Shown piece after piece: positions 2,916 through 58,846 of a stretch of DNA of 64,000 bases. Source of the stretch: a virus. The DNA lies in the IMG/VR virus record IMGVR_UViG_3300045988_171089; one strand, given 5' to 3'. Every line of letters begins with the position of its first letter. Positions within the stretch are counted from its first letter, which is position 1. The notes beneath the pieces were generated by a model. The model did no database searches. It was not told where the DNA came from and saw nothing but the letters and a program-made list of their open reading frames with translations. A program made the position numbers and the translations under genes.

Positions 2916-4517
2916 CTAGCCCTTGTTTTCCCACGGCCAGCCAGCCGAGGTGCCACGCTCAAGAAGCGGGATAAGCTCGAAACCCTTATCAGTCAGACCA
3001 CCAAGCGACCAACGGCGCTCCTTAGCCTCCATATGTGCCGCCTCATAGCCTGCAAGGTTCCAGGTGAAGACGTTCACGTGCGCCGGTACATAGCGGTCAA
3101 GAACATCATCGACAGTGTACTCAGAACCCCACCACTTACGGGCACCGAGGCTCTGCTCATCACTAATGATAAGGATACGGTCATGACCAGCATAAGACTC
3201 ACGCAGAGCCTTAGCGGTATCAGTACCACCACGAGCCTCCGGCATGTCATTATCAACAACACGCAACAGGTCATTAGAGGTAATCTTAACCTTCTCAACC
3301 TGAGTATCGAACGCCACAACATCAACGCGACCCTTATTCTTCAGAGCAAAGGCGGCGGCGAACATGTTAGCGGCATCCTGACGCGACAGAGAGCTACGCT
3401 CAGACAGGCGGCAACCCATAGAGCCGGAACGGTCAAGAAGAAGCAGGGTACGACCCGGCAACTCCGGCACATTATCCAGCACACTATTAGCACCCGCCTG
3501 TAGTGCGGCGGCAAAATCAAGCGGCGCGTTCTTGTATGCGGCAAGGAAGTTAATCGGCATAGTCTTCGCACGGACAATAGCTTCCTCATCACGCAACTTA
3601 CGGTTAATCTTCTCGATAGTATCGTAAGACACACCCGCGTTGCTGATACGGCTCAGGTTCATACGAAGCGCCTGGTAACCCATATGGTCAATAAGATTAT
3701 CCCAAACCTCAGCCGGGATAACACCAATAGTACCCGCAATTACCTCATGGGTAAGACGCGCATCCTTGATGATACGGTCTGCGGATTCCTTATCGGAAAG
3801 AACCTTAATCTTCTCGTCCTTGGTGAGGTTCAAGAAGTCACGGCGTGCCTTCATGACGGACAGCTCTTCAAGGTTCGGCTCACGACCGTAAGCAGAATCA
3901 ATGATAGTGCCGTACAGGTTCTCGCGGTACTTATCAGACGGCTTCGGGTGGACAAGGTTCACCACGTCAGCAAGAGTGAAAGCACCCTTAGCCATACGAC
4001 CCTGCCACTTCAAAACACTGTTCTCAGTAACAGACTTATTCAGGGCATCAGCAATACCACGCTTCACAGCAGACGGCACCTTACGACCAAAACGGGTAAA
4101 CCAGTAAGCAAGGAACTCGCTAGACTCATCCAGACGACCAATAGCGGCGGCAACAAGGGCACGGTTACCACCAGTCAAACCAGCCTCCAGGCGTGCATGA
4201 ACAGCTTCAGCGGCAATCATTGCCGGTACAGCACGAAGACCTGCCTCCTGACGAAGCCAACCAATCAGACCCTCAAGCCAAACATTATCGTCTGCAACCT
4301 TCTTCACAAGACCAGCGATACGGTCAGCACGCGCGTCAGCCTTCTCATAGAACGTATCCTCATTCAGCGAGGTAACGGCGGCTAGGAACAGCTCAGCCTT
4401 CGGGGTACGCTTCCAGCCGGTACCACCCTCAAAGGTACTGATACGCTCGCCGGTAGTGTCAATCTTATTAGTCGCCTTATTAGCGGTCACATGGTTCTTA
4501 GTGTTGAATCGTCCCAT
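2916..4517 (-). CDS. rsr: Ro60/TROVE-domain protein with C-terminal vWA domain (Rsr-like, 533 aa)
   Basis: N-terminal FEGGTGW (Ro60 EGGtyy-like) TROVE region; C-terminal vWA with MIDAS DRSGSMG ... GGTDT ... ILIISDEQS; size matches Ro60 (~530 aa). Confidence 0.85.
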   Translation of the reverse strand: MGRFNTKNHVTANKATNKIDTTGERISTFEGGTGWKRTPKAELFLAAVTSLNEDTFYEKADARADRIAGLVKKVADDNVWLEGLIGWLRQEAGLRAVPAMIAAEAVHARLEAGLTGGNRALVAAAIGRLDESSEFLAYWFTRFGRKVPSAVKRGIADALNKSVTENSVLKWQGRMAKGAFTLADVVNLVHPKPSDKYRENLYGTIIDSAYGREPNLEELSVMKARRDFLNLTKDEKIKVLSDKESADRIIKDARLTHEVIAGTIGVIPAEVWDNLIDHMGYQALRMNLSRISNAGVSYDTIEKINRKLRDEEAIVRAKTMPINFLAAYKNAPLDFAAALQAGANSVLDNVPELPGRTLLLLDRSGSMGCRLSERSSLSRQDAANMFAAAFALKNKGRVDVVAFDTQVEKVKITSNDLLRVVDNDMPEARGGTDTAKALRESYAGHDRILIISDEQSLGARKWWGSEYTVDDVLDRYVPAHVNVFTWNLAGYEAAHMEAKERRWSLGGLTDKGFELIPLLERGTSAGWPWENKG

Positions 4518-4626
4518 GATAGGGGTTCCTTCCTATAGTTACTGTTTAGGGTGGCTGGTTGGTGCCCCTGTTCTGTTGTGTTTGCTTGTTTTTGGGTAAA
4601 AGAAATGGGGGTGCGGAGAACCAGCC

Positions 4627-5470
4627 TTGTCGAGGGTAGTTACTAGCCGACAAAGGCGACCAGTTTCGTTGCAAATTTACAGATTTGTTTGAAGTAACTC
4701 GACAAATTCACATCCACACCCCCAAAGGGGAGCAAATATATCACACTATATTCGCTAGTGCCCGTAGCAGGTTCGACCCTGCGTGCCAGCCTTTCGGTGC
4801 AACACCCCCTATTGGGGTGCGGGCTTTGAAGTGTTGGAATTGTAGAGAATGGAGCTTATCGAGGGTGTTTGACTAGTCTAAAGGCGACCAGTTCATGATT
4901 CTAAGCAATTCCCAAAATTGTTGAAGTAACTCGATTGAATCGCTTCTATAGGTTTAAATGGCGTATCGAATTGTTGCAAGAACAACTATCCGTTGCATTT
5001 AATTCATAACAGGCACACCTGTTATAGGCACCCTACGACACCTCTAGCCCCTCGCGAAAACGCTTAGGGTTACATGTAACCAAACCGGATTAGCTAACCA
5101 TTACTTCCAGTTTTTGTTACCCCGCAAGAATGATGCCAGTCTGCATCTCGTCAAAAATAAGGGGGTGGTTACGGAAGCTTGTAACCGGACGGTGGATGCA
5201 TTAGTTCACCTTCTTGAGGGTGCTGACAGCAACGATTTTGCCTTAGCCTTGGTTCGATTATGACTCGTTCATTAGAACCTATACTCATAGTGTACCATAA
5301 GCTGTCGATTTTAGCAACAGCTAACGACAGAAACATACAAACTTGTACAGATTTGATTAACGGTTAATCATACTCTCAAGTTATTATAGCAAACCTTGTT
5401 TAGGCCTGCAAGTGCCTGTAGCAGGTTCGACTCTGCGTGTCGCTTACCACCCACCCTTATGGTGGTACAG
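4627..5470. ncRNA. candidate Y-RNA / tRNA-like non-coding region adjacent to Ro60 gene (strand not resolved)
   Basis: 1.1-kb ORF-free gap next to rsr containing two paralogous ~80-nt hairpins (4627-4705, 4858-4935) with a covarying closing stem (TTGTCGAG/CTCGACAA vs ATCGAG/CTCGAT) and shared loop motif AAAGGCGACCAGTT; two T-arm-like hairpins GCAGG-TTCGAC(C/T)-CTGC (4767-4782, 5421-5436). Confidence 0.4.
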
Positions 5471-5621
5471 GCTCCATTGGGCTCGCGCCACCCTTTGAAA
5501 TATCCATATTGTAAAGTCTTCAGGTTTCCCTGTCGCCCCTACATATATAACTATAACGTACCTGCGCGGGGTATGCAAGTCGAAAACCAACTATTTTCGC
5601 GGGGGCTTCATCACACCCGTT

Positions 5622-5972
5622 CTACTGAGTGATATATGCTTCGATTCGACCGTTGCCACAGTGGACAATATGAGTATCCTTAGCCTTGACGCGGGTGTTA
5701 GTGGTGTTGGTGTACATGTTGGTGGTTGCCGCGAGGTTGTATCGGAGCCAGTGGGTAGCGTTGCCGCCCTTTTCCATGTTTCGGATTACGGGCTTGAGGT
5801 TGCTTGAGTTGAGGCGTTCTAGTGTTGCGCGGCGGGTGATGGTGGTGGTGGGTCGCCCCTTTTTGTCGTTGAGTCGGAGGGCGGTGATGGTGCCGGTCTT
5901 CTTGTCGTATTCGATGGTGATGCGCTGGCGGGTTCGCTTGTTGCGGCGGCTAAAGAGCTTGAAGATGTCCAT
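5622..5972 (-). CDS. hypothetical basic protein (116 aa)
   Basis: ORF track; Lys/Arg-rich N-terminus. Confidence 0.5.
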   Translation of the reverse strand: MDIFKLFSRRNKRTRQRITIEYDKKTGTITALRLNDKKGRPTTTITRRATLERLNSSNLKPVIRNMEKGGNATHWLRYNLAATTNMYTNTTNTRVKAKDTHIVHCGNGRIEAYITQ

Positions 5973-6054
5973 GAGGGTTCCTTTCGGTGTGTCGTGGTTT
6001 GGGTTACCTACCCCCTATGGGTGGTTTGTGTACCCATAGGGGGGGTCTTTGGGG

Positions 6055-6414
6055 TTAGGGCTTCTCTACTACTTCTGCGACCAGGTAGAAGATGCCGATG
6101 TTATCTTCTTCAACCTTGACATTCTGGAAGCCGTATCGCTTACCGTCACCAAGCGGGTTATCTAGAGTGACTGCGAGAAGCTGGACAATAATGTTGGTTC
6201 GTGCGATTACTACCCAGGTTTCCATGTCACTATCAGTCATATTGTCGCTGTAGTATTCGACTACGGGGTTAGGGATAGGAAGAATGAACTCGCCGTATTC
6301 CTCCCAGGTGTCAGTGTCTAGGATGGTAGCGGTTGCAATGCGCGCACCGTTGCCGTTCTTTTCGTCAAACTCGTAGGTAATGTTTGCGATAGCGTCCATG
6401 ACGGTTCCTTTCAC
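6055..6414 (-). CDS. hypothetical protein (119 aa)
   Basis: ORF track; promoter-family motif upstream (6470-6560). Confidence 0.55.
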   Translation of the reverse strand: MKGTVMDAIANITYEFDEKNGNGARIATATILDTDTWEEYGEFILPIPNPVVEYYSDNMTDSDMETWVVIARTNIIVQLLAVTLDNPLGDGKRYGFQNVKVEEDNIGIFYLVAEVVEKP

Positions 6415-6605
6415 AGGTGGTGAATCCTATAGGGGTTCCTATAGGGGGGTTTCAGGGTTTCCCCCTTTGCTTATGTAACTATTATGCCACACTCTAGCGG
6501 GGTACGCAAGTCGAAACAATGTGAACCTGGTCACATTCTATTTGTGAGTACATAAAACCCCCTAGCGGAACTATTACTAGGGGGTTTCTAGGACTACCTA
6601 TAAGG

Positions 6606-7025
6606 TTAGGCGGTTAGCTCCAGCGGCTCCGGGTCAGCGTACCGCATAACAATGTTGCCACTGTAACGCTCAAGGTGGGTAATCTTGAACTCAAGCGGGA
6701 AAGTCTGAGCATCAACCATAAGAGCCGCAATGTCACGAAGGATAGGTGAGGTGAGCGGGAACTCTGCCTCAAACTCATAACCGCCGGTGCTAATCGTCAC
6801 AAACAGGGACTTCATGGAATTACCAACGCCGTCCGGGTCTTCGTCCTGTCGAATCTGGAAGCCGGTAGCGGTCAAGTCCTGGTCGTTGATAGTGGCAATA
6901 TCTTCAGGGTCGAACTTACCGTCAAAGAAGCCGAGGATAGTGAAACCGGAAACGAAAATACTGTTTTCGTACATGATAGGGGGGGTTCTCCTTGTGATTG
7001 GAAAGTCTGACATGTACCACCCCAT
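6606..7025 (-). CDS. hypothetical protein (139 aa)
   Basis: ORF track. Confidence 0.55.
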   Translation of the reverse strand: MGWYMSDFPITRRTPPIMYENSIFVSGFTILGFFDGKFDPEDIATINDQDLTATGFQIRQDEDPDGVGNSMKSLFVTISTGGYEFEAEFPLTSPILRDIAALMVDAQTFPLEFKITHLERYSGNIVMRYADPEPLELTA

Positions 7026-7189
7026 CAGGTTATATGCCTAGGCGTTCAAGGTAGCACACACCCAGTGTATCAGTAATTCCGAATGGGTGCCAACTTGCTT
7101 GCGTGCCCCGTATCTGGTTAGTAGGTGTAGAAAGTCGCATATCTTACGGCTCGTTATGGACACTCACGAGTTAGCACAACGTGATTCAT

Positions 7190-7225
7190 GGCACTTATTT
7201 TTTATTCTTCAAAAATCCACCCCTA
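7190..7225. other. AT-rich tract (possible DNA-unwinding element) adjacent to the iteron array
   Basis: gcacttattttttattcttcaaaaatcc, unusually AT-rich for this genome. Confidence 0.35.
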
Positions 7226-7712
7226 GAGCCCTTATAGTCCCCGTCAAGGTAACCACCCATTAGCTATCAACAATCACCCCCCCTACCTAATCTCATAGTG
7301 AACCTACATGACCATCTCACGCGCGCGTAATAATCTTTATCTCTATCTATAGTCATTATGCCCCAAATACCCCGTTCTGCCCCGGTATTTCAAGGAAGAA
7401 CCACCCCCAAGTCGGGACGGAAACTCCCAAATAGTCCCCGGTAGAGCCCTTATAGTCTCCCCCTAAAAGTCCCCGCAAACTCCCAAATAACCACCCCCAA
7501 AGAGCCCTAATAGTCCCCGGTGAATCCCCTATAGTCACCCAAGAGCCCTAATAGTCACCATAGGCGCTCTACTGGTTGCCTTTAGAACCCTTATAGTCCC
7601 CGTGGTACCCCCCCCGCATTGATTGAGTGCTTCCATGCCTTACTACTAGAGCCCTTATAGTCACCCCCATATTGGTTCACATGAATCCCCTATAGTCACC
7701 CTCCCTTGAAAG
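7226..7712. repeat. iteron-like array: ~8 direct copies of a 15-18-bp motif AGAGCCCTTATAGTC(C/A)CC in a ~490-bp ORF-free region
   Basis: Copies at ~7230, 7437, 7501, 7521, 7541, 7578, 7648, 7688 with core CCYTWATAGTC; no convincing ORF. Confidence 0.6.
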
Positions 7713-7763
7713 CTTCTTTAGGTGGACTAATTGAGTCATACTCTAAACTGCCCACAACGCAGA

Positions 7764-7810
7764 AATAAACCCCACAGAGAGCCATGCATGGCTTCCTATG
7801 GGGTTTATTT
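7764..7810. terminator. bidirectional intrinsic-terminator-like hairpin (15-bp stem) with T-runs on both sides
   Basis: AAATAAACCCCACAG ... CTATGGGGTTTATTT inverted repeat enclosing palindrome GCCATGCATGGC; TTTATTT follows on both strands. Confidence 0.55.
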
Positions 7811-7880
7811 GGGTATACTAATACCCCCGCAAGATTTAATAACCTTACGGGGGTATCGTTTACAGATTGGGCGCTAGGGG

Positions 7881-8678
7881 CTAGTTGCTCTTCTTGATGT
7901 ACTTCTGGGCTTCACCCTTGGGTACATGGAACGCAATTTTTGCGCGTCCAGCATCCCAAGCGTTCACAGTACAGCCGGTGTCTCGACCTTCTACACAGAG
8001 CGGCTGACCATCAAAAACAGTTAGCCGAGTGTGATACAAGGGCGTGTACTCTACATACGCCTTACCCGGCTCTTGGTCTTCAATAATAAAGTACTTATCA
8101 GGCGTGTAGGTGACTTCCTGCTTAGCCGGTGATTCACCTTCCTGCACCCAAGCATACAGGGGCTTTGTGGGCTTATTGGCACTCTTGGCACTATCAAGTA
8201 GAGTATCGCTAGGGGTGCCGCCTGTGTTTTGGATTTCATGAGCTACCTGCTGTTGCTCATTATTACTATCCAGCTCTCGTAGCGGATACTTAATGGTTAC
8301 GGTCTGGTGCGTGCCATTTTCAACCTTCGTATCAGGCATCAGCTCCAACGCCTTAACATTAGGGCTTACCACTGCAAGGACTACCAGAACAACGCTGACA
8401 ATAATCTTTAGGATTGAGCTGACCATAATCTTGCCGTATTCCTTGTAACCGTATCCCCATAGGGCGGTTGGGTTTTCATGAACCCACCAATCATAGGTGA
8501 GACGGTCGCACCCGAACAGCATTTCAAAACCTTCAAAACCTGGGTCTTCCGGTACACCTTCGGGAATATCCTTGTTGAAGAAGAACGCCGGTATGATTCC
8601 GGAAATAATTAGCCCACCAATAACGTAAGGGACAACCTGAGTATCTAGCTTTAGAGCCACCGCAACAGCAACAAGCAT
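7881..8678 (-). CDS. membrane protein (2 predicted TM helices); start moved to internal ATG at 8678
   Basis: ORF track lists 7881..9014 but the first ~110 codons read through the tRNA/repeat element (VGSNPTGA signature of tRNA T-arm); hydrophobic stretches MLVAVAVALKL and IMVSSILKIIVSVVLVVLAVV. Confidence 0.45.
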   Translation of the reverse strand: MLVAVAVALKLDTQVVPYVIGGLIISGIIPAFFFNKDIPEGVPEDPGFEGFEMLFGCDRLTYDWWVHENPTALWGYGYKEYGKIMVSSILKIIVSVVLVVLAVVSPNVKALELMPDTKVENGTHQTVTIKYPLRELDSNNEQQQVAHEIQNTGGTPSDTLLDSAKSANKPTKPLYAWVQEGESPAKQEVTYTPDKYFIIEDQEPGKAYVEYTPLYHTRLTVFDGQPLCVEGRDTGCTVNAWDAGRAKIAFHVPKGEAQKYIKKSN

Positions 8679-8754
8679 GAAGATGACACGGAAACGGTTC
8701 AATGCTGAAGGTACTGGGTCAAAAGGTGGTAGAGGCCCCTTGAAGTTTCGTTCT

Positions 8755-8926
8755 GAGTCATCCCCGTGTGCACGGTAGATGAGCCAGGGCTTCGCCCTGA
8801 CGGTAACCCTCAAATCAGTATTAGCCGATTCTCCTGGTCTTGACATGCAACCCCGAAAGGTTGTCTGTCCGTTTATACTCTCCCGTCTCTCACAGGCGAG
8901 GGCAATACACCCAAAAAGTGTGTTAC
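8755..8926 (-). repeat. tRNA-linked structured repeat element, copy A
   Basis: Conserved core (minus strand) CTCGCCTGTGAGAGACGGGAGAGTATAAACGGACA-[variable hairpin]-GTCAAGACCAGG...CTTGAGGGTCACCGTC-[variable hairpin]-GGCTCA.CTACCGT...ACGGGG.TGACTC shared with copies at 18158, 20115, 20776, 23130. Confidence 0.7.
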
Positions 8927-9000
8927 GTGCCCCCGTGGGATTTGAACCCACGACCTGCGGATTAAAAGTCCGTAGCTCTGACCTGACTGAGCTAAAGGGG
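8927..9000 (-). tRNA. tRNA-Lys(TTT)-like, probably chimeric/pseudo (acceptor 5' strand ACCCCTT does not pair with 3' strand GGGGGCA)
   Basis: D-arm GCTC/GAGC, anticodon loop CTTTTAA, T-arm GTGGG-TTCAAAT-CCCAC; the 3' end GGGGCAC is the sequence that precedes repeat copies C and E, suggesting replacement of the native 3' end. Confidence 0.5.
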
Positions 9001-9013
9001 TCTACAAGGAACA

Positions 9014-9042
9014 AGTATACAGTACTCGTTTCTGTTTTGCAA
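9014..9042 (-). promoter_or_regulatory. promoter TTGCAA-N17-TATACT driving tRNA-Lys copy at 8927
   Basis: Minus strand TTGCAA(9037-9042), 17-nt spacer, TATACT(9014-9019), ~12 nt before tRNA 5' end; near-identical copy at 23015-23043. Confidence 0.6.
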
Positions 9043-9224
9043 ATTCATTATTTCTAGGGGGTCTATATGTGGGGCAATATCTCATTACGCCTATAACCAT
9101 TAGGGCACACCCCTAATCCTAATGCAAGCCGAAATAGCATGAAATAGGTCATATAAAGAATTGGGCAAAGTGAAACCCCCTAGAGGAAATACCACTAGGG
9201 GGTTTTATTCAGTAGTTCAAACTA

Positions 9225-10010
9225 CTACTTCTTATTGTTCGCCTTCAGCTTTTCCAGCTCATCATCCAGAGCGGAATCAACAGCCAGAGAGTCCAGCTCA
9301 TCGAAGCCGTCCTTTACCGGGTCAGCCATAATCTCCTGACGACCCTGAAGACGTGCCTCCTCACGGGCGATACGCTCTTCCCACTCATTCATAGGCGAGC
9401 TCAGGTTAGTACCATTAACATTGATGCTCTCAGTAGCGTCAAGGATACGACCCATAGCCTCATTAGTCTTATGACGTGCCAGAAGCTCATCACGCTGGTG
9501 GTGAGCCGCCGCCAGCTTCTCACGTGCATCATTTAGCTGACCCTTCAGAGATTCAACACGCGGGGTAGCAACCTTAATCTGCTCCTCAAGCTTCTCAGTG
9601 GTCTTCTCAGCGTTAGTACGGTTCTTCAGGGCGATACGTGCCAGACCGTCAAACTTATCAGCCTTAGCCTCTGCTTCAGCCTTAGCCTTAGCCTGCTCCG
9701 GGTCTTCCGCGTCAAGCTTCTCAGCCTGCGCACGGAACTCATCAGCCTTATTAGAAGCCGCCTGAGCCTTAACCTGCCACTCCTGAATCTTAGCCTGTTC
9801 CTTCTTATGGTCGGACTCCATGATGCGCAGGTTGCCGATAACCTCAGCAACATTACCCTCCGCTACTCGAATTTCTTCCTTGTAGTCACGGATAAGCTGG
9901 TTCAGCATCTCCTGCGGGTCTTCCGCCTTGTCAATTGCGGTGTTAATCTTTGCGCGAATGAGGTTGTTGAAGCGTGCAAAAATGCTGTTCTTGTTCTGGT
10001 TCTTACCCAT
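9225..10010 (-). CDS. pspA: PspA/IM30/Vipp1-family protein (phage shock protein A-like, ~261 aa from ATG at 10010)
   Basis: N-terminal SIFARFNNLIRAKINTAIDKAEDPQEMLNQLIRDYKEEI matches PspA signature (S-IF-RF-DI-NINALLDKAEDPEKM-Q-IRDM); long coiled-coil; SD AAAGG upstream of 10010. Confidence 0.8.
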   Translation of the reverse strand: MGKNQNKNSIFARFNNLIRAKINTAIDKAEDPQEMLNQLIRDYKEEIRVAEGNVAEVIGNLRIMESDHKKEQAKIQEWQVKAQAASNKADEFRAQAEKLDAEDPEQAKAKAEAEAKADKFDGLARIALKNRTNAEKTTEKLEEQIKVATPRVESLKGQLNDAREKLAAAHHQRDELLARHKTNEAMGRILDATESINVNGTNLSSPMNEWEERIAREEARLQGRQEIMADPVKDGFDELDSLAVDSALDDELEKLKANNKK

Positions 10011-10183
10011 TGTGGGTTTACCTAACCTTTCGTTGGTTAATGTTGTGGAACATGATTCACGGTTGCCCATCCTGTAGGGCTTCCTGTCCTTTGCGTGACC
10101 TTTAATGGTCACACTCAGAATATCATGCTCCGGGGTTTAAATCTAGTGGGTTAGCGTTTTGTGGCTAACTGTTTACCTGCTAT

Positions 10184-12663: not shown

Positions 12664-13731
12664 CTAGCGGCGCTTACCGCGAGTCAAGAAGGCATTAGAA
12701 ACAACCTTGAAATGTGCGCGGTTAGCGAGTTCACGGCGCGGCTTACCATCTTTAAAGTACCATACGATACCTTCGGCGGTCTGACCGGGCGCTACCTGAG
12801 ACTCTACAGAGTCAGCCTGCTCAAGGGCGGCAAAGCCGTTACCCACCCATTCAATATCGAGGATAGGTACCCAGAGGTTCGCTTCCTTGAACAGGGATTC
12901 CACTTCGGCGTTAGATGCGTGGAAGGCACGGAAATCGGGCTGGTCGCCGGTGCTGAACTTGAAGTTACCCCCGATGCGGTTACAGAACAGTTCGCCCTGC
13001 ACCCATTCGCCTGGCTTGAGCTGGTCAAACACATAGGCGTGACGGCGGTAACCGTCAAGGTACTGCTTCCAGTTCTTACTATCCATTGCGTCTACCTTGA
13101 TGGAGCGGTCACGGTTAGCAATACGAATCTCTTCGGTGTCAATATCACGCCAAACGGTCATAGAGGTGCCGTCAATCTTCTCAGTAGCGTACACATCATT
13201 TGCAGTGACACTGCTCAGGAAGTCGATAGGGATATTCTGGACGCGCTCAGCGTCGGTCTTGGTAATGAAGTTGGGGAAAGCTTCTAGACCGTAGTCACCA
13301 CCGGTGAGAATCTTCTCCTCGACATGCTTAGTGACAATGCCATCGAAGTAAGTATCCACTTCTTCCTGAGTAGCATCTTCACTCAAACCTTCAAACTCAG
13401 AGACGGGCAAGATAAGACCCTGCGACAGGGTTTCACGCAGGTACATGGTGCGCAGTACTACGCCTTCAATATAGTGTCCATTGACAACGCGGGTTGCCTT
13501 CTTGCCACGGATAGGCTCAAACGCCGGGTGCTTGGTGTTGAGGATTGAGTCAATCTCAAAGTAAACACCCTTATCGCCTTCGGTCATGGTCTTGGGTGCT
13601 ACAACCCACCACAGGGTGCCTGCGGGTCGGACGGCGTGAATCTTATCTGCCGGGTTATTACATTCCTTCACTTCTTCAATGGTGGTAATGTGTGCGAGGT
13701 GTCGGATACCGTCTACAGCGGTAGAAGTCAT
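12664..13731 (-). CDS. ATP-dependent RNA ligase-like nucleotidyltransferase (355 aa)
   Basis: Covalent nucleotidyltransferase motifs in order: motif I KIDGTS (ATEKIDGTSMTVW), motif IV EGIVWYF, motif V FKVVS; KxDG(T/S) spacing typical of Rnl-type RNA ligases. Confidence 0.7.
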   Translation of the reverse strand: MTSTAVDGIRHLAHITTIEEVKECNNPADKIHAVRPAGTLWWVVAPKTMTEGDKGVYFEIDSILNTKHPAFEPIRGKKATRVVNGHYIEGVVLRTMYLRETLSQGLILPVSEFEGLSEDATQEEVDTYFDGIVTKHVEEKILTGGDYGLEAFPNFITKTDAERVQNIPIDFLSSVTANDVYATEKIDGTSMTVWRDIDTEEIRIANRDRSIKVDAMDSKNWKQYLDGYRRHAYVFDQLKPGEWVQGELFCNRIGGNFKFSTGDQPDFRAFHASNAEVESLFKEANLWVPILDIEWVGNGFAALEQADSVESQVAPGQTAEGIVWYFKDGKPRRELANRAHFKVVSNAFLTRGKRR

Positions 13732-18380: not shown

Positions 18381-19946
18381 TTATGCTTCCGCGTGTAGGC
18401 GTTCTGCTTCACACTGGATGTTGATTGCCGCGTTGAGGTCGCGGTCAATCACAGCGTGGCAGTGCCCACACTTATATACACGGTCGCTTAGAGTAAGCTT
18501 AGTGTCAGGTCGCTTACCACAGTTGCTACATGTCTGCGAGGACGGGTAATAGCGGTCGATAACCTGAATAACTGAACCATACCAGGCGGCTTTGTATTCA
18601 AGCTGAGTTCGGAATATACCGAAGGATACGTCGAGTACAGCTCGGTTGAGCCTGGCTTTCTGTGCAACGTTCTTACCAGGCTTTTTGATAGTACCTGATG
18701 CGGATGCGGTCATTCCAGTAACGTTAAGGTCTTCAATACCGATAAGTGTGTATCGGGTGGTTAGGTTTTTAGTGAGCTGATGCAGTCCAGTTTCACGGCG
18801 TAGCGCTGTGAGGTGGTGGGTTTTTGCCAGCTTACGGGCGGTCACCTTGCGGCGATTGGAACCCTTAACCTGTCGTGCAATTTTCTGCTGAAGCTTAGCG
18901 ATACGCTTCTCAGTGTGCTTGAGCCAGCGGGGGTTTTCGACGGTAGGGTTGGTTCCGTTGGTGAAGTTCACGCCACTATCGGGGTTGAAACGCTTAGGTG
19001 CCTTCGTGTCAGAGAGTGCCGCCATATACTTAACACCAAGGTCTACACCTACCGCACCCGCGTTCTTCTGCTTACGAGTAGGCTTAGGGGCGGGTACAGT
19101 TACTTCGACAAGGAAGGATACATACCAGCGGTCAGCTACCTGGGACACGGTGAAAGACTTGATTACACCACCCTTGCGGATAATACTCATCATGTGGCAG
19201 GTATTGCCGTGAATACGGAAAGTTCCAAGGTGCGCGAGGCGGACGTGACGGTAATCACTGATAGTAGGGGTGCTCTTGTCGCCGCGACGCTTCATGTTTT
19301 CTTTGACGCGCTTATATGCCGGTTCACCACGCAGGTACGCGGTTCCGTAACCACCCATAACTTCGGGTGCGTAAATAGTGAAAGAGTCACTATTAGATGC
19401 GCGACTTTTAAACTTAGGGGTACCCATCTTACCACCCGCACGCTTACCAGTACGCGAATCAAAAAAGTTCTTGAGTGCCTTATCAGCAGACTGTAGACCA
19501 GACATGAGGACACGACGCTTCGCAGTATGAAGCCACGGCTCCCTAGAACGCTCCTCGTCGCCCCACACTTCCTCCACAGGTGCACCTTCTTCGATAGCCT
19601 TAGCACAGGCGCGATGACGGGCAACCTCAGCAGTCAGCATCTTACTACTAAACGCCATATAACCCAGTGTCTTGAACTTAGGGTCTTCCTTGGTGAGAGT
19701 CTTAAGCTCAGCCTTAATCTCGTCATCAGACGCGCCCTCTTCGCGGCGCTTAGCCCAATACTTGTTGCGGGTGTGCATAACCTCAGTGTTATAACCAACA
19801 AGCATATTATAGGCATAACGAGAAGCACCACCATCACGCGCCAAAGCAACCAACTGCTCCTGAGTAGGGTCAAGGCAAAACTTAAACGCAACATGACGCT
19901 CAACGGTATCCGGCGACGTGCCGGTAGATTCAACAGTAGTGGGCAT
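18381..19946 (-). CDS. tnpB: TnpB (IS200/IS605-family OrfB, RuvC-like RNA-guided nuclease), ~521 aa from ATG 19946
   Basis: N-terminal AFKFCLDPTQEQ...ASRYAYN (OrfB_IS605 HTH); RuvC-I GVDLGV, RuvC-II IGIEDLNV, C-terminal zinc finger CSNCG...CGHC and RuvC-III RDLNAAINI; ORF track start 20045 includes a 33-codon upstream artefact. Confidence 0.85.
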   Translation of the reverse strand: MPTTVESTGTSPDTVERHVAFKFCLDPTQEQLVALARDGGASRYAYNMLVGYNTEVMHTRNKYWAKRREEGASDDEIKAELKTLTKEDPKFKTLGYMAFSSKMLTAEVARHRACAKAIEEGAPVEEVWGDEERSREPWLHTAKRRVLMSGLQSADKALKNFFDSRTGKRAGGKMGTPKFKSRASNSDSFTIYAPEVMGGYGTAYLRGEPAYKRVKENMKRRGDKSTPTISDYRHVRLAHLGTFRIHGNTCHMMSIIRKGGVIKSFTVSQVADRWYVSFLVEVTVPAPKPTRKQKNAGAVGVDLGVKYMAALSDTKAPKRFNPDSGVNFTNGTNPTVENPRWLKHTEKRIAKLQQKIARQVKGSNRRKVTARKLAKTHHLTALRRETGLHQLTKNLTTRYTLIGIEDLNVTGMTASASGTIKKPGKNVAQKARLNRAVLDVSFGIFRTQLEYKAAWYGSVIQVIDRYYPSSQTCSNCGKRPDTKLTLSDRVYKCGHCHAVIDRDLNAAINIQCEAERLHAEA

Positions 19947-20067
19947 AATAAAAAACTTCCTAAAATGGATGTGGACAATAAAAGCCCACCCCAAACCTAA
20001 CACTGGAAAACCAGCACCAGACCCAGGGAGGGCTTCAAAAAACAATAGTCACAATAAGGTGTAAAAG

Positions 20068-20114
20068 TAACCCCGGCGGGAATCAAACCCGCACAATCTG
20101 TGTAGGAGACAGAC
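20068..20114 (-). pseudogene. 3' fragment of a tRNA-Arg(CCT)-like gene (anticodon arm + T-arm + acceptor 3' strand; no D-arm/5' acceptor)
   Basis: TCTGT-CTCCTAC-ACAGA, GCGGG-TTTGATT-CCCGC then CGGGGTTA; closely resembles the 3' half of intact tRNA-Arg(CCT) at 20302-20373. Confidence 0.55.
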
Positions 20115-20301
20115 GCTCTAGAGTCACCCCCGCGTGCAAGTCATACAAGCCTTACAGTTTTGCGGATAGGCGAGCCAAAGCTTTACTTTGACGGTGACCC
20201 TCAAGCCGGTTACCCAGCTATCCTGGCCTTAACACGTTAATGTCCGTTTAACCTCTCCCGTCTCTCACAGGCGAGGGTGACACACCCTAGAGTGTGCTAC
20301 G
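20115..20301 (-). repeat. tRNA-linked structured repeat element, copy C
   Basis: Full-length copy between intact tRNA-Arg(CCT) and its displaced 3' fragment. Confidence 0.7.
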
Positions 20302-20373
20302 TGCCCCTGGCGGGAATCGAACCCGCACGACTTGTGTAGGAGACAAGTGCTCTATCCGTTAAGCTACAGGGGT
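20302..20373 (-). tRNA. tRNA-Arg(CCT)
   Basis: Acceptor ACCCCTG/CAGGGGC (A1-C72 mismatch), D-arm GCTT/GAGC, anticodon stem CTTGT/ACAAG loop CTCCTAC, T-arm GCGGG-TTCGATT-CCCGC. Confidence 0.7.
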
Positions 20374-20548
20374 GAAAGACGGGTGAAGGTATCAACACAC
20401 CAAAAGGTGCCGTCTGCATCAACCTCCACCCAACCGAGGTATAAAAACTAGCCGTATCACCGCTAGTGCTCAAACCCGAAAGAATGGACACAAACAGCCC
20501 TACTGACCTGTCAAATAAAGTTGAACCACCACTTTAGCAGTCCAACCG

Positions 20549-20623
20549 CACCCCCAACGGGATTTGAACCCGCGACCTCCGCCGTGAGAAGACGGTATCC
20601 TAGACCAACTAGACCATAGGGGC
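20549..20623 (-). tRNA. tRNA-Glu(CTC)
   Basis: Acceptor GCCCCTA/TGGGGGT, anticodon stem CCGTC/GGCGG loop TTCTCAC, T-arm GCGGG-TTCAAAT-CCCGT. Confidence 0.7.
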
Positions 20624-20662
20624 AAAACATAGGCAATAACCCATAATAGGTTATTACCCCAG

Positions 20663-20737
20663 TACCCCTCGCAGGATTTGAACCTGCAACCTGGCGGTTC
20701 GTAGCCGCCTGCTCTATCCACGTTGAGCTAGAGGGGT
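20663..20737 (-). tRNA. tRNA-Arg(ACG)
   Basis: Acceptor ACCCCTC/GAGGGGT, D-arm GCTC/GAGC, anticodon stem GGCGG/CCGCC loop CTACGAA, T-arm GCAGG-TTCAAAT-CCTGC. Confidence 0.75.
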
Positions 20738-20741
20738 TTAT

Positions 20742-20775
20742 GAAGCTCTCCAGGAAGGAGTCGAACCTGGAACCA
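20742..20775 (-). pseudogene. 3' fragment of a tRNA-Asn-like gene
   Basis: gaagctctccaggaaggagtcgaacctgg closely matches the 3' end of tRNA-Asn (gaagctctcccggaaggactcgaacc) at 20950. Confidence 0.5.
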
Positions 20776-20911
20776 GAGCCTACCTCATGAGTATGAGGAG
20801 GGCCTAACATTTTGTTAGACGGTGACCCTCAAGCCGGTAACCCAGCTATCCTGGTCTTGACACCACCCGAAAGCAATGTCCGTTTATACTCTCCCGTCTC
20901 TCACAGGCGAG
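20776..20911 (-). repeat. tRNA-linked structured repeat element, copy D
   Basis: Conserved core between tRNA-Asn(GTT) and the displaced tRNA-Asn 3' fragment. Confidence 0.65.
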
Positions 20912-20949
20912 ATATATAACACGCCACCAAAAAATGGTGAAGAGTGAAG

Positions 20950-21021
20950 CTCTCCCGGAAGGACTCGAACCTTCAACCAATCGCTTAACAGGCGACCGCT
21001 CTGCCATTGAGCTACGAGAGA
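20950..21021 (-). tRNA. tRNA-Asn(GTT)
   Basis: Acceptor TCTCTCG/CGGGAGA, D-arm GCTC/GAGC, anticodon stem GTCGC/GCGAT loop CTGTTAA, T-arm GAAGG-TTCGAGT-CCTTC. Confidence 0.75.
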
Positions 21022-21112
21022 ATATAGAGAAACAACCACTAGTCAGGTACACGCACACGGAAAGAAAGATTAAGAAACGTGGAGTGTAACCAAAACAAGG
21101 GGTATATTTCCC

Positions 21113-21150
21113 TTAGAAGCCTGGGGCGGAATCGAACCACCCTCTCCCGG
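21113..21150 (-). pseudogene. isolated tRNA 3' fragment (T-arm GGTGG-TTCGATT-CCGCC + CCAGGCT) with no matching 5' acceptor strand
   Basis: No complementary AGCCTGG found within 150 nt upstream on the minus strand. Confidence 0.4.
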
Positions 21151-21359
21151 CGACGAAGTAACAAGTACTGTAACACCAACTTTGGAAAGGTAACCAGTCA
21201 TGTATACTAAGTCGTTCAGGCGCATCACCAGATGCTACCAAGCCAAACGTGGAAACGTGCAGGTACCGAGCCTGCACCCACCGCAAAGGGTCGCTCTTCC
21301 TTGGAGACGTAACGCTTCCACTTATAAACACTAGAACAAAATCAACTAGTATTATCCGT

Positions 21360-21432
21360 TCTAGTGAAGAGCCTCCTACCGGACTTGAACCGGTAACCTC
21401 CTGTTTACAAGACAGGTGCTCTACCAATTGAG
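21360..21432 (-). tRNA. tRNA-Thr(TGT)
   Basis: Acceptor GCCTTCT/AGGAGGC, D-arm GCTC/GAGC, anticodon stem CCTGT/ACAGG loop CTTGTAA, T-arm ACCGG-TTCAAGT-CCGGT. Confidence 0.8.
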
Positions 21433-21434
21433 CT

Positions 21435-21506
21435 AAGAAGGCGGGGTGTGTGACGGGACTCGAACCCGCTACTACTTGCGCCACAAGCAAGCGCCTCGCT
21501 ATTCGG
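21435..21506 (-). tRNA. tRNA-His(GTG)
   Basis: Acceptor GTGTGTG/CACACAC, discriminator C, anticodon stem CTTGC/GCAAG loop TTGTGGC, T-arm GCGGG-TTCGAGT-CCCGT; no encoded G-1 (base -1 is T). Confidence 0.7.
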
Positions 21507-21508
21507 CT

Positions 21509-21582
21509 TCACACACAGTGCCCCCTACTGGACTCGAACCAGTGACCCACGCCGTGTAAAGGCGGCACTCTAACCAACTGAG
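21509..21582 (-). tRNA. tRNA-Val(TAC)
   Basis: Acceptor GCCCCTT/AGGGGGC, D-arm GCTC/GAGT, anticodon loop TTTACAC, T-arm ACTGG-TTCGAGT-CCAGT; only 2 nt from tRNA-His. Confidence 0.7.
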
Positions 21583-21682
21583 CTAAAGGGGCGAAACGCA
21601 TACTATGTCCACTATCTTCCATCAACCAGTGAAGGAAACCGCGCCCATTACCCGTATGCGAGAGGCAAAGAACCCGGTACAG

Positions 21683-21756
21683 TAGTCCCTGCTGGACTTG
21701 AACCAGCGACACCCACCGTATCAGAGTGGTGCTCTAACCTGCTGAGCTAACAGACC
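21683..21756 (-). tRNA. tRNA-Ile(GAT)
   Basis: Acceptor GGTCTGT/AGGGACT (one G.G mismatch), D-arm GCTC/GAGC, anticodon stem CCACT/GGTGG loop CTGATAC, T-arm GCTGG-TTCAAGT-CCAGC. Confidence 0.65.
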
Positions 21757-21849
21757 AGGGTACGCCACTATGAGTGGCATATATACTATCCACTTAGGAT
21801 AGTAGCTCACGTTCGAGGGTGGTACACCCTAGAAGAACGTGTTACGCAC

Positions 21850-21912
21850 AGCCCGCCGGATTTGAACCGACACCTCCGTCACCCAGCGCACTACCCGATT
21901 ATACTAAGGCTG
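21850..21912 (-). ncRNA. non-canonical tRNA-like element (good 7-bp acceptor ACAGCCT/GGGCTGT and T-arm GTCGG-TTCAAAT-CCGGC, but only 35 nt between them and no recognisable D/anticodon arms)
   Basis: Acceptor/T-arm complementarity unlikely by chance; middle region cannot be folded into a standard cloverleaf. Confidence 0.35.
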
Positions 21913-22038
21913 TTGCCGCACCCCTACAAGCCGTTCACGTGATTAACTCGTATGATGCCCCTCAAGGCTCATGACAACCTCAAGGCACGACATGCTTTAA
22001 AGAAAAATGTACAGCCAACATGCCAAAACTGCACATAG

Positions 22039-22113
22039 TGCACCCTGTGGGGCTCGAACCCACGACCCGGCGGTTAAGAGCCGCCTGCTCTACCTGCTGA
22101 GCTAAAGGTGCGC
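22039..22113 (-). tRNA. tRNA-Lys(CTT)
   Basis: Acceptor GCACCTT/AGGGTGC, D-arm GCTC/GAGC, anticodon stem GGCGG/CCGCC loop CTCTTAA, T-arm GTGGG-TTCGAGC-CCCAC. Confidence 0.8.
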
Positions 22114-22227
22114 GGCGTACTGGCTGAAAGGGCTCGAAAGCACCAGTACGCCTTAATCAGTATTATTCGACTTTTGTCTTTAGTAAGCTTCCTGAAAGGA
22201 GTTAAGTAAAAAAGGAAGCTTACCGAG

Positions 22228-22297
22228 CATCTTACAGGGCTCGAACCTGTGACCTCCACACCAAAGTGCGGCGCTCTACCAACTGAGCTCAAGATGC
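22228..22297 (-). tRNA. tRNA, anticodon uncertain (possibly TTG/Gln); anticodon stem poorly paired
   Basis: Perfect acceptor GCATCTT/AAGATGC, D-arm GCTC-AGTTGGTA-GAGC, T-arm ACAGG-TTCGAGC-CCTGT; candidate loop CTTTGGT. Confidence 0.45.
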
Positions 22298-22439
22298 CGT
22301 CACAGCACAAATCAACTATGTGCACAGGTTTCACTGTACTATGACACCCCAGAGAGGATTCGCGAGTTCCACTCAAGAGGTCAGGGACTTTCGCGTTTAC
22401 ACCCCTGAATAATTGTAACGCACCATATAGCGCGTTCAG

Positions 22440-22517
22440 TACGCCCTACGGGACTCGAACCCGTGCCACTTGTCCCAGTCGGTGACTCCAGGGCTCTACC
22501 ATCTGAGCTAAGGACGT
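22440..22517 (-). tRNA. tRNA, anticodon undetermined (78 nt; extra nucleotides between D-arm and T-arm)
   Basis: Acceptor ACGTCCT/AGGGCGT, D-arm GCTC-AGATGGTA-GAGC, T-arm ACGGG-TTCGAGT-CCCGT; middle region CCTGGAGTCACCGACTGGGACAAGTGGC does not give a standard 17-nt anticodon arm. Confidence 0.4.
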
Positions 22518-22679
22518 TACCGCACCCTAAGTAACCACCAAAGGGTACACCTAAAGGCTCGCGACTTCCTCTAGGTTACTCAAAGAAGGTGAATAGGTAA
22601 AAGCCCTCCTTTGAGAAGTATTGACACATACGTTACAGCAATGTTTAAAAGTGTAGTTGATGTGTCTAAACTACACTAG

Positions 22680-22761
22680 TACGCCCGGAGGGACTTGAAC
22701 CCTCACGTCCGAAGACACAGGAACCTAAATCCTGCGTGTCTGCCAATTTCACCACGGGCGC
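22680..22761 (-). tRNA. tRNA-Leu(TAG) (type II, long variable arm)
   Basis: Acceptor GCGCCCG/CGGGCGT, 3-bp D-stem, anticodon stem CAGGA/TCCTG loop TTTAGGT, variable arm GTC-TTCG-GAC, T-arm GAGGG-TTCAAGT-CCCTC. Confidence 0.8.
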
Positions 22762-22790
22762 TTATACAAGATAGTGATTATCTTGCAGAG

Positions 22791-22863
22791 TGGACCGTAT
22801 GGGAATCGAACCCATGACCTCCTGCTTGCAAAGCAGGCGCTCTACCAATTGAGCTAACAGCCC
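22791..22863 (-). tRNA. tRNA-Ala(TGC)
   Basis: Acceptor GGGCTGT/ACGGTCC (G3.T70 wobble, Ala identity-like), D-arm GCTC/GAGC, anticodon stem CCTGC/GCAGG loop TTTGCAA, T-arm ATGGG-TTCGATT-CCCAT. Confidence 0.8.
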
Positions 22864-22929
22864 TCACCCTTCAGTGTTATATATGACTGAAGGGGTGTTT
22901 GTTAAGAAGTGTTTTAGGCTTCTTGTTTG

Positions 22930-23002
22930 TGCGCCCTACGGGGCTCGAACCCGTGACCCGAAGATTAAAAGTCTACTGCTCTACCAACTGAGCTAAAGGC
23001 GC
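22930..23002 (-). tRNA. tRNA-Lys(TTT)
   Basis: Acceptor GCGCCTT/AGGGCGC, D-arm GCTC/GAGC, anticodon loop CTTTTAA, T-arm ACGGG-TTCGAGC-CCCGT; preceded by promoter 23015-23043. Confidence 0.8.
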
Positions 23003-23014
23003 TTACAAGGAACA

Positions 23015-23043
23015 AGTATATCATGTTCCTTTGTGTTTTGCAA
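23015..23043 (-). promoter_or_regulatory. promoter TTGCAA-N17-TATACT immediately upstream of tRNA-Lys(TTT)
   Basis: Near-identical to the element at 9014-9042. Confidence 0.6.
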
Positions 23044-23113
23044 AATTCACTATTTAGTGTTGTCAATTATCTAGTGTCTAAGTAAACAGTGTTTTGCTGT
23101 CTTCTTGACTTGC

Positions 23114-23131
23114 GTACTCCCAACGGGATGA
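23114..23131 (-). pseudogene. short tRNA-Glu-like 3' fragment (ATCCCGTTGGGAGTAC) flanking repeat copy E
   Basis: Resembles T-stem 3' half + acceptor 3' strand of tRNA-Glu. Confidence 0.35.
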
Positions 23132-23297
23132 GTCACCCCCGTATATACGGTAGGTGAGCCAAAGCTTTACTTCGACGGTGACCCTCAAGCCAGCCTAAGC
23201 TGACCCTGGTCTTGACACGTGAATGTCCGTTTAGATTAGCCACCTCTCCCAGTCTCTCACAGGCGAGGTGAGTGAACACACCCTAGAGTATGTTACG
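23130..23297 (-). repeat. tRNA-linked structured repeat element, copy E
   Basis: Full-length copy directly 3' of tRNA-Glu(TTC). Confidence 0.7.
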
Positions 23298-23370
23298 TGC
23301 CCCTAACGGGATTTGAACCCGTGTTACCGCCGTGAAAGGGCAGTGTCCTTGGCCGCTAGACGATAGGGGC
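23298..23370 (-). tRNA. tRNA-Glu(TTC)
   Basis: Perfect acceptor GCCCCTA/TAGGGGC, 3-bp D-stem, anticodon stem CTGCC/GGCGG loop CTTTCAC, T-arm ACGGG-TTCAAAT-CCCGT. Confidence 0.8.
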
Positions 23371-57299: not shown

Positions 57300-58440
57300 A
57301 ACGCACTGACAAGGGAAAAGGCTACTTTCCACACAGGGCCAGATACCCAAAAAACCACCCAAAACCATTATACCAAAAAACAACCCCAAAAACAGGCAAA
57401 AACCACCCCCAAAAACCCAAAAAAAACACCCAAAACAGACCACACCCCACCAACAACACCCCCAAAACACCCACCACAAAAACACAAAACCCCCCGACAA
57501 GGCAAAAGACACAAAAACATACACACAGACACAACACCAAAAAACAAAAAAGAACAACAGAACACCAGGGCACCTAACCACCCGGCACCCACCACACTAC
57601 CCCGCCCTACCTTACCCTACCGCCCTCCTTTAACCTCCTCTACCCCTCCACCCTTTCTAGCCCTTACCCCTACCTTACCCTTTATTACCCTGCCCCCTGT
57701 CTAGCCTTCCTTTACCCTTGTTCCCTTACTGTGTGTGTCTGTGTGTTCTCTCTATGTATGTGTTCTGTCTAGCTGTTCTTTTGTTCTGTATGTGTGTTCT
57801 CTTTCTGTCTAGCTTTTGTGTTGTTCTGTCTAGCCTGTTGTTCCCCCCTGTGTGTGTTCGTCTGTTATGTATCTGTGTCTATTGGGTCTGTGTTCTGTGT
57901 CTGCTGTGTGTCTGCTTATTGTGCCCCCTTGTGTGTTCTCTTATGTGTGTCTACTGTATGTGTCTTATATATGTGTGGCGTGTATCTGTTATTGGTCTGT
58001 GTGTCTGTGCTTGTGTCTTGCTTACTGTGTCTGTGTGTACTGTGTACTGTGTACTGTGTATCTGTGTCTCTTATATGTATGTGTGTGTTATTCCTGTGTG
58101 TACTGTGTCTGTGTTCTATGTGTGTTATGTATCCTCTCTATTCTGTATGTGTATCTGTGTGTCTGTGTTCCTTATTTCTTGTGTATGTTCTCTGTTCTTG
58201 TTCTGTGTTTGTGTTGTTGGTTACCCTGTTGGTGTGGCGTTTATCATGGTGGTGTGATGGGCGCTTGTTTTTTGGGTTTGGTGGTTTTGGTTTTTTGGGG
58301 GGTGTGGCGTGTGTGGAATTTTTTTATTTTTTTATTCACGGTTCCTGGTGGGTGGTCGTCTTTTGCTAGGTTTTTGTTATCGCACATTTTTTTGCGGGCT
58401 CCCCTGGGGTTTGTGTCGCGCCCGAAATTTTTTTAAAGAT
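57300..58440. repeat. extreme low-complexity, strand-asymmetric non-coding island: top strand A/C-only (57300-57590), C/T-only (57590-57720), then G/T-only with TG/TCTG microrepeats (57720-58440)
   Basis: Near-total absence of G/T then of A/C on the top strand; all six frames open (no stop codons possible), so ORF-track entries here are compositional artefacts. Confidence 0.7.
58395..58435 (+). terminator. plus-strand intrinsic terminator candidate (hairpin CGGGC...GCCCG + TTTTTTT)
   Basis: gcgggctcccctggggtttgtgtcgcgcccg followed by aaattttttt. Confidence 0.4.
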
Positions 58441-58846
58441 ATAACACACTCATACTGTGGTTATGTGATACTTGTGATGAGCTTATATATGCCTCTGTTG
58501 GCGTACTTATACCACACCCTGCATTGTTCTGATATTGCACCCGTTTATACTTGTGCCCGTGTCTGCCTTTGCCTGTGTTCGTATCTGCTTGCGTCTATGT
58601 CACCCCCGTGTTTCATTCCATGTTGCCCCGGTATTGTGTCTACTCTTATACCTTGTCTTGTGTCTACTTGTGCTTGTAGTATGTTTTAGTATGCCGTGGG
58701 TTACACCCTGTGTTGTGTGCCTACCTCTAGTGTTTAGTGGGTGTGCCGTATAGGGTGTGTTACTTGTTGTGGTGTGTTTCACTTGCTGGTTTTATACCCC
58801 TTTTTTCTTATGTCTGTTTGTTCTTTTGGAAGGATTGTGTTTACTG

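Follow-up and report, generated by a model that had tools for sequence, protein, structure and literature searches.

A repeat array of a large oral metagenomic element as a probable rep-distal copy of an iteron origin region

Initiator-binding repeats at a second site are known from P1 (incA), F (incC), RK2 (auxiliary clusters), P4 (ori/crr) and R6K (alpha/beta/gamma), where Rep-mediated pairing or looping allows them to control or assist initiation. These second sites lie 0.1–5 kb from the origin or rep and do not have the non-iteron blocks of an origin; in P1, F and RK2, the control iteron clusters are located within a few kb of rep. The locus described here, designated A, lies within a stretch of 64,000 nucleotides (IMG/VR record IMGVR_UViG_3300045988_171089, referred to below as the window) and likewise appears to carry initiator-binding repeats at a second site. 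As in incA, its iterons are identical to those of the rep-proximal locus, designated B, but the non-iteron blocks are retained and rep is ~140 kb away; moreover, this copy differs from those of P1, F, RK2, P4 and R6K in being complete, nearly antipodal and inverted.

Among RepA_C initiators, iteron origins have been demonstrated by experiment for RepB of pMP7017 (PMC8313286) and Rep of SGI1 (PMC7433901). The Bifidobacterium breve conjugative megaplasmid pMP7017 resembles the present elements in its actinobacterial host (probable here), the size of the replicon, the presence of conjugation genes and a RepA_C-related initiator, as well as in its many repeats of ~20 bp, of which a highly conserved essential subset adjoins an AT-rich region; the other repeats and the spacers vary between relatives, and a few iterons are located outside the basic replicon (PMC8313286). 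The DnaA box is absent in some pMP7017 relatives, and therefore is not a universal feature (PMC8313286). In contrast with pMP7017, the present elements have what appears to be a complete second origin copy, inverted and 126–146 kb from rep, and their initiator has 775 aa and falls below the Pfam threshold for RepA_C.

The closest detectable initiators are the RepA proteins (PF04796) of two Rothia plasmids, NZ_CP056082.1 and NZ_CP023509.1. These plasmids carry 6–7 iterons of 22 bp upstream of each repA, and in our own comparison the Rothia iteron type TCCCCCTAAATGTCCCA was identical to positions 7457–7473 of the window (TCCCCCTAAAAGTCCCC) at 15 of 17 positions. They differ from the present elements in their size (~40 kb), in their single array of strict 22-bp tandem iterons and in a perfect DnaA box (TGTGGATAA), which is absent here, and their RepA shares only ~22% identity with the 775-aa protein. 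From the results presented below, we propose, with a probability of about 0.55, that the array in the window consists of Rep-binding iterons and that locus A is a duplicated copy of the origin, likely a secondary Rep-dependent origin.

Repeat array and gene-free gap of locus A

An earlier note on this DNA had described an iteron-like array of about eight copies. The array was confirmed and found to include eleven copies of an 18-bp unit, all on the plus strand between 7225 and 7700, with none elsewhere in the 64 kb; on the minus strand, which carries all the flanking genes, the unit reads CGGKGACTATWWGGGCTCTA. Six units (7225, 7443, 7501, 7542, 7584, 7648) match AGAGCCCTTATAGTCNCC with at most one mismatch, against 0.07 matches expected by chance, and none of 100 shuffles reached six; two units (7522 and 7683) are TGAATCCCCTATAGTCACC variants, and three (7422, 7457, 7478) are degenerate. 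The 11-bp core, which had been noticed as the conserved part of closely spaced direct repeats, was likewise supported by the mismatch counts, since at no more than one mismatch the window contains 17 matches against 3.8 expected, 11 of them inside 7229–7697; the six outside the array interval, each with one mismatch, are approximately the number expected by chance. The start-to-start spacings in the cluster are 21, 14, 21, 23, 21, 20, 42, 64 and 35 bp; most of them correspond to two helical turns or a multiple thereof, so that the array has the arrangement of an iteron origin (at least three direct repeats of 17–22 bp in the same orientation, spaced by about two turns). The features of the region are the following, with positions in the window.

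6606–6974, minus strand: downstream gene of a 122-aa protein, acidic (pI 4.05) and confined to these elements
7064–7093, minus strand: sigma-70-like promoter (TTGGCA-18-TACACT, with TG) of the 122-aa gene, conserved and outside the duplicated element
7190–7224, no strand assigned: short tract rich in A+T (minus strand GGATTTTTGAAGAATAAAAAATAAGTGCC), at which the duplicated element has its edge and A–B homology stops
7225–7242, minus strand: isolated iteron beside the T-rich tract, found in the majority of A copies; the B copies and some A copies have a degenerate version
7316–7369, no strand assigned: conserved block in which an AT-rich stretch comes after a (CG)n run (minus strand GTGACTATAGATAGAGATAAAGATTATTACGCGCGCG), with the lowest duplex stability in the region; candidate unwinding element
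7380–7395, no strand assigned: conserved non-iteron block (minus strand CCTTGAAATACCGGGG), common to A and B copies
7422–7518, minus strand: core cluster of five iterons (7422, 7443, 7457, 7478, 7501), near-invariant among A copies and between A and B; minus-strand readings CGGGGACTATTAGGGCTCTT, GGGTGGTTATTTGGGAGTTT, CGGGGACTTTTAGGGGGAGA, GGGAGACTATAAGGGCTCTA and CGGGGACTATTTGGGAGTTT
7522–7700, minus strand: distal iterons (7522, 7542, 7584, 7648, 7683) with variable spacers, differing in copy number among relatives
7763–7810, no strand assigned: bidirectional intrinsic-terminator hairpin downstream of the 321-aa gene, its stem preserved by paired changes in relatives
7821–7856, minus strand: second hairpin (−27 kcal/mol, z about −6), directly following the 321-aa gene's stop codon
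7881–8846, minus strand: gene of a protein of ~321–326 aa, upstream of the array, containing two or three hydrophobic segments and matching no family

With the start of the downstream gene set at the RBS-preceded ATG at 6974, which is the start called in relatives, the gene-free gap extends over ~906 bp (6975–7880); the 840-bp gene desert of the earlier note is thus real and slightly longer than stated. The folding energies also agree with its description of strong hairpins that include a bidirectional terminator: in addition to the hairpin at 7821–7856, that at 7763–7810 has −29.8 kcal/mol on the minus strand and −28.2 kcal/mol on the plus strand, with z about −6. The AT-rich tract that had been pointed out at 7190–7225 does exist (~77% A+T over 30 bp), and its TTTTTGAAGA motif is kept in A, in B and in L105; however, it is short, and the least stable 40-mer of the interval 6.0–9.5 kb, within the top 0.08% of the whole window for instability, is instead 7330–7369. 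In all, there are two stretches of ~30 bp with 77–80% A+T, both short and without evident 13-mer repeats. The best candidate for unwinding is the AT-rich/(CG)n block at 7316–7369, not the tract at 7190–7225; this block holds one half-iteron (GTGACTATAG) and is kept in both A and B, while distant lineages have it in a diverged form.

Pairwise identity by segment was determined for 16 distinct versions of locus A. It reached 0.95 in the iteron columns and 0.92 in the non-repeat block 7321–7420, as compared with 0.77 in the spacers and 0.59–0.65 in the flanking intergenic DNA. The iteron columns of the core cluster are 96% identical; those of the distal iterons are 94% identical versus 74% for their spacers. 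A search of IMG/VR with the exact repeat AGAGCCCTTATAGTC gave 17 single matches, of which 16 correspond to chance and one (L011) to locus B, and a degenerate two-unit pattern run against GTDB genomes and IMG/VR retrieved mostly unrelated simple tandem repeats, the exception again being L011.

Many contigs from human oral metagenomes, up to 291 kb in length, encode exactly the same 122-aa protein. The array occupies the same place in eight close relatives (L018–L024 and L028), with 9–12 units each, a number that varies by indels of 20 or 42 bp; among the shorter loci, L025–L027 start inside the element and show the proximal iteron or iterons, and L029 starts past them. In one sub-lineage (L032–L034), in which the 122-aa protein is 89% identical, neither the array nor the 321-aa gene is present, and homology to the window picks up again at 7123. 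The earlier note had held that absence of the repeats from closely related phages would speak against its proposal; they are absent at A in this sub-lineage, but present in all the other relatives examined. The loss in L032–L034 suggests that A is dispensable. Two contigs (including L020) have a 355-aa gene inserted just past the T-rich tract, and the breakpoints of the L020 insertion and of the L032 deletion are both just beyond the tract at 7190–7224. On a 306-kb contig (L097; ERZ1674288.1, 202–210 kb), there is a tandem duplication, of period 2962 bp, that takes in the 321-aa gene and the entire array. Given that the 321-aa gene is gained, lost and duplicated along with the array, the two seem to form one accessory module. 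The flanking genes, the 355-aa insert of L020 and the genes that replace the module in L032 and L033 had no match in PHROGs, Pfam or NCBIfam.

Locus B and its rep gene

A search with a 22-mer from the conserved core revealed, on four contigs of 216–306 kb from oral metagenomes, two loci per genome, A and B, in opposite orientation and 126–146 kb apart. On the two longest contigs, the separation is 126 of 261 kb and 144–147 of 306 kb, that is, 0.47–0.49 of the contig. Locus A has the context seen in the window, and locus B was first seen as the IMG/VR locus L011. Homology between A and B is restricted to an element of ~500 bp comprising the iteron cluster, the AT-rich/(CG)n block and the T-rich tract. 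The 115-bp core with five iterons is nearly identical in A, in B and in all lineages, and two 45-bp blocks of the core cluster are identical to L011; A and B also share the stretches CCTTGWAATACC, GTGACTATAGATRGRGATAAAGATTATTACGCGCG, TTGAYGGGG and GGGGTGGRTTTTTGAAGA. Locus B, the primary copy, has the make-up of a classical iteron origin: it contains 8–9 iterons, mostly 21 bp apart (with one 23-bp and one 14-bp step), and its T-rich end is ~190 bp upstream of the start of the 775-aa gene. Hence, a cognate initiator gene adjoins the paralogous copy B only, and no rep-like gene was detected within 10 kb of the window copy, A.

The 775-aa protein was related by tblastn to the 'replication protein RepA' of the two Rothia plasmids (E = 1e-7 and 4e-5), and hhalign against Rothia RepA gave a probability of 98.7% (E = 3e-16) over 324 columns. 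Motifs common to the 775-aa protein and Rothia RepA include PLAYVHGGLP/PIAFISCCLP and GNKKGFKGFV/GNRKGFRGLV. The Rothia RepA proteins exceed the Pfam cut-off for PF04796 (RepA_C); the 775-aa protein itself is below that threshold, and it had no match in Pfam, NCBIfam, PDB sequences or a phage tblastn. Its AlphaFold model is poor (pLDDT 49.6), and the top Foldseek hits, RepE–iteron complexes, are non-significant (E 0.4–1). On the other side of B, there are genes for a glutaredoxin, a DnaG primase, a TraG/TrwB-type coupling protein and a TcpC protein, and past rep, genes for an Rpf/LysM transglycosylase, a Ser/Thr kinase and a PP2C phosphatase. The latter three point to an actinobacterial host, possibly Rothia.

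More distant elements provided a further comparison. Rep homologues with 44–49% identity are encoded with the same synteny on contigs of 236–361 kb, and upstream of four of the five rep genes examined there are repeat triads that keep the 14/30-bp spacing and have a lineage-specific sequence (GTGAYTATTTGGTAG, AGTGACTTTTTGGTAG and GGTGGTTTTTCGGTAG); some of these lineages also have a diverged AT-rich block and T tract. The iteron sequence, therefore, co-varies with the lineage of the initiator. In IMG/VR, the exact iterons of two distant lineages occur at one locus only per contig of 307–361 kb, suggesting that the second locus, A, and the growth to 8–12 units are specific to the lineage of the window.

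In most genomes, the spacers of A and B remain of two different types, and this speaks against a wholesale homogenisation through gene conversion. Two loci depart from this pattern. In L102, a B copy has an A-type middle segment, and in L092 (ERZ773072 NODE_2276, 9 kb, 2.8x coverage), at ~3875–8939, the left flank of A is joined to the right flank of B, with the 116-aa and 122-aa genes, the T tract and the core iterons followed by the B terminator, the glutaredoxin and the primase. L092 could be either an assembly chimera or an inversion isomer. Taken together, the L092 hybrid and the A-type segment in L102 suggest that the copies exchange sequence.

Possible roles of locus A

The idea that the repeats are iterons bound by the Rep of the element is well supported, although indirectly, by these comparisons. 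One of the readings offered in the earlier note was an iteron-type replication origin; this holds in that the same element is located directly upstream of a RepA_C-related gene at B and in that the repeats are conserved above their spacers, but the window copy has no adjoining rep, the nearest being at locus B, 126–146 kb off. Judged from sequence comparison, A is best described as a duplicate, remote from rep, of the region that forms the true origin of a RepA_C-type replicon, and probably as an accessory copy derived within this lineage rather than an essential origin.

According to our model, Rep made at locus B would bind the iterons at A in trans and would most likely open the DNA there, so that A could act as a secondary, Rep-dependent origin; by pairing with B, A might also contribute to copy-number control. 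The step of DNA opening is suggested by the fact that non-iteron blocks, among them the region's least stable duplex, are maintained at A by selection, these blocks being 92% identical while the flanks are ~60% identical. Other observations point against an origin at A. In addition to the distance from rep, there is no DnaA box (TTATCCACA or TTGTCCACA, at most one mismatch) in 6900–7900, and neither a gene-strand switch nor a clear inflection of the GC skew is seen at A, the skew of the window being uninformative. Also, A is missing together with the 321-aa gene from one sub-lineage, and its AT-rich stretches have only ~30 bp. Finally, the A-type segment in the B copy of L102 indicates that the non-iteron blocks could stay alike through gene conversion, with no need for selection on origin function.

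The main rival of a secondary origin is a copy-control locus similar to incA of P1, in which the iterons of A would bind Rep without firing, titrate it and handcuff B. We regard this as possible, though somewhat unlikely. It would explain why the iterons of A are the same as those of the rep-proximal origin, why there are more of them at A (9–12) than at B (8–9), and why one sub-lineage can do without A while another has it in duplicate, which would fit a modulator; besides, extra iteron clusters with roles in control or stability are established in large low-copy iteron plasmids (PMC8313286). However, the non-iteron blocks that A conserves so much better than its flanks would be needless for pure titration, and the known clusters are within a few kb of rep, as opposed to ~140 kb here.

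A more doubtful proposal is that the two inverted, nearly antipodal origin copies work as a functional pair. They could give rise to a Rep-driven circle of ~290 kb with two origins, or they could be a recombination substrate that flips half the genome and might redirect forks, in the style of 2-micron amplification. In the yeast 2-micron plasmid, as here, two inverted repeats of ~0.5 kb split the circle into roughly equal halves, and recombination between them would invert one half. The present elements differ from it in that no site-specific recombinase was identified and in that the repeats are origin sequences; the sole hint of such an inversion here is the hybrid contig L092, with 9 kb and 2.8x coverage. 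If this proposal were true, the elements would replicate in a way that is unusual for a huge phage or a bacterial extrachromosomal element.

A role of A in segregation or tethering, either as a centromere bound by a partition adaptor or as a site bound by Rep in the way EBNA1 binds the EBV repeats, seems improbable. Type Ib and type II centromeres typically consist of arrays of direct repeats, as does EBV FR. In addition, the non-essential repeats of pMP7017 aid stability rather than copy control (PMC8313286). Nevertheless, no gene with a Pfam family of ParA, ParM, TubZ or an adaptor was found within ~10 kb of A or within 3–10 kb on each side of B, and the same sequence forms an array upstream of rep. 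The narrower suggestion of the earlier note, a parS site, found no support, since no partition gene was seen within ~10 kb and the units are asymmetric direct repeats on one strand, unlike the palindromic 16-bp parS of the ParB type.

That the array represents operators of a regulator, or promoters for an element-encoded RNA polymerase, is less probable still. The minus-strand motif GACTATAGGG resembles promoter cores of the T7/SP6 type, it contains TATAGT/TATAAG hexamers and, in our own comparison, is similar to ACTATAGGG, and the array is upstream of a gene at both loci. Against this, the motif is present at no other gene in the 64-kb window and, in the related loci of this lineage that were covered, was seen only at A and B; the units are merely 14–23 bp apart, the genes downstream of A and B are unrelated, and the 122-aa gene has a conserved promoter of its own outside the duplicated element. 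The cluster of phage-regulator operators that the earlier note had offered as a further option found no backing either: no DNA-binding or ParA/ParB-type gene was seen within ~10 kb of A, where the nearest neighbours are acidic or membrane proteins, and the 122-aa protein is unlikely to be a DNA binder. Lastly, a non-coding sponge RNA with repeated protein-binding motifs, for which the 900-bp gene-free region ending at a terminator and the abundance of RNA-related genes nearby (Ro60/TROVE, RNA ligase, tRNAs) might speak, was rejected as scarcely credible, because neither strand folds unusually well (z = −1.8 and −1.2), the array has no Rfam match even in a permissive search, the spacings of 20, 21, 42 and 64 bp come close to whole multiples of the helical repeat of DNA, and the array is linked to rep at locus B.

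Nature of the elements and genes around the array

The related contigs are listed in IMG/VR as viral genomes, without annotated relatives, and we found no description of these elements in the literature. None of the ~70 ORFs scanned, which include a bulk scan of 61 ORFs of the window, matched a phage structural family; in the bulk scan, only an SPFH/flotillin protein and a few unnamed PHROGs were matched. A blastn search of the region against INPHARED phages returned only a tRNA, and against PLSDB plasmids it returned no match. Genes of plasmid type, for replication and conjugation, flank locus B: the TraG/TrwB-type coupling protein and the TcpC-like protein adjoin the primase and rep (L011, 5800–9619; L105, 258–2981), and the contigs with these two genes, of up to 361 kb, are classified as viral in IMG/VR. 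The 'phage' label of these elements rests only on the IMG/VR classification of related contigs, and the plasmid-type genes at B contradict it in spirit.

These results suggest that the 'huge phages' in question replicate like iteron plasmids, and the combination of iteron replication with conjugation-type genes bears on whether they are phages, phage-plasmids or megaplasmids. For uncultivated elements of 260–360 kb from the human mouth, a RepA_C-related initiator with defined iterons represents a testable replication module, and the A and B fragments are candidate vector parts for oral Actinomycetota. What appears to be a complete origin copy ~140 kb from rep is an unusual layout of a known kind of site, and it could give insight into the way in which very large replicons of low copy number control or distribute initiation.

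The neighbourhood of the array contains genes for a tRNA-Lys, PspA, a Ro60/TROVE protein, an RNA ligase and TnpB, and a cluster of 15 tRNAs. The Ro60/TROVE+vWA protein and the Rnl-type RNA ligase are encoded near a gene-free stretch of 1.1 kb (the positions concerned are 2916–4517, minus strand; 4518–5621; and 12664–13731, minus strand). This stretch is a place to seek Y-RNA-like partners of Ro60; no Rfam match was obtained in 4400–9300, permissive thresholds included. Segments of ~4626–4950 recur in relatives as diverged paralogous copies with ~70% identity.

The isolated tRNA-Lys(UUU) gene (8927–9002, minus strand) is 1.2 kb from the array, and in some relatives, such as L018, its position is occupied by genes for proteins of 115 and 363 aa. 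The tRNA cluster (20068–23370, minus strand) includes 15 genes, one with an irregular anticodon loop, plus one borderline match. TnpB/IS605-OrfB genes were identified in the window (18381–20045, minus strand) and in L018 (3695–4921), L021 (12166–13740), L023 (6377–7954), L028 (6527–8092) and L107 (5409–6959), and one is located directly after rep; the different positions among relatives suggest that they are active or recently active passengers of the IS200/IS605 type. The region 57700–60430 shows an extreme strand composition, with a GC skew of about +0.37 and an AT skew of −0.5 to −0.7 on the plus strand, and its translation is of low complexity in all frames, with no credible ORF. A PspA/IM30-family gene (9225–10112, minus strand) lies two genes upstream of the array; its product, together with the SPFH/flotillin protein also encoded in the window, constitutes an unusual membrane-stress cargo.
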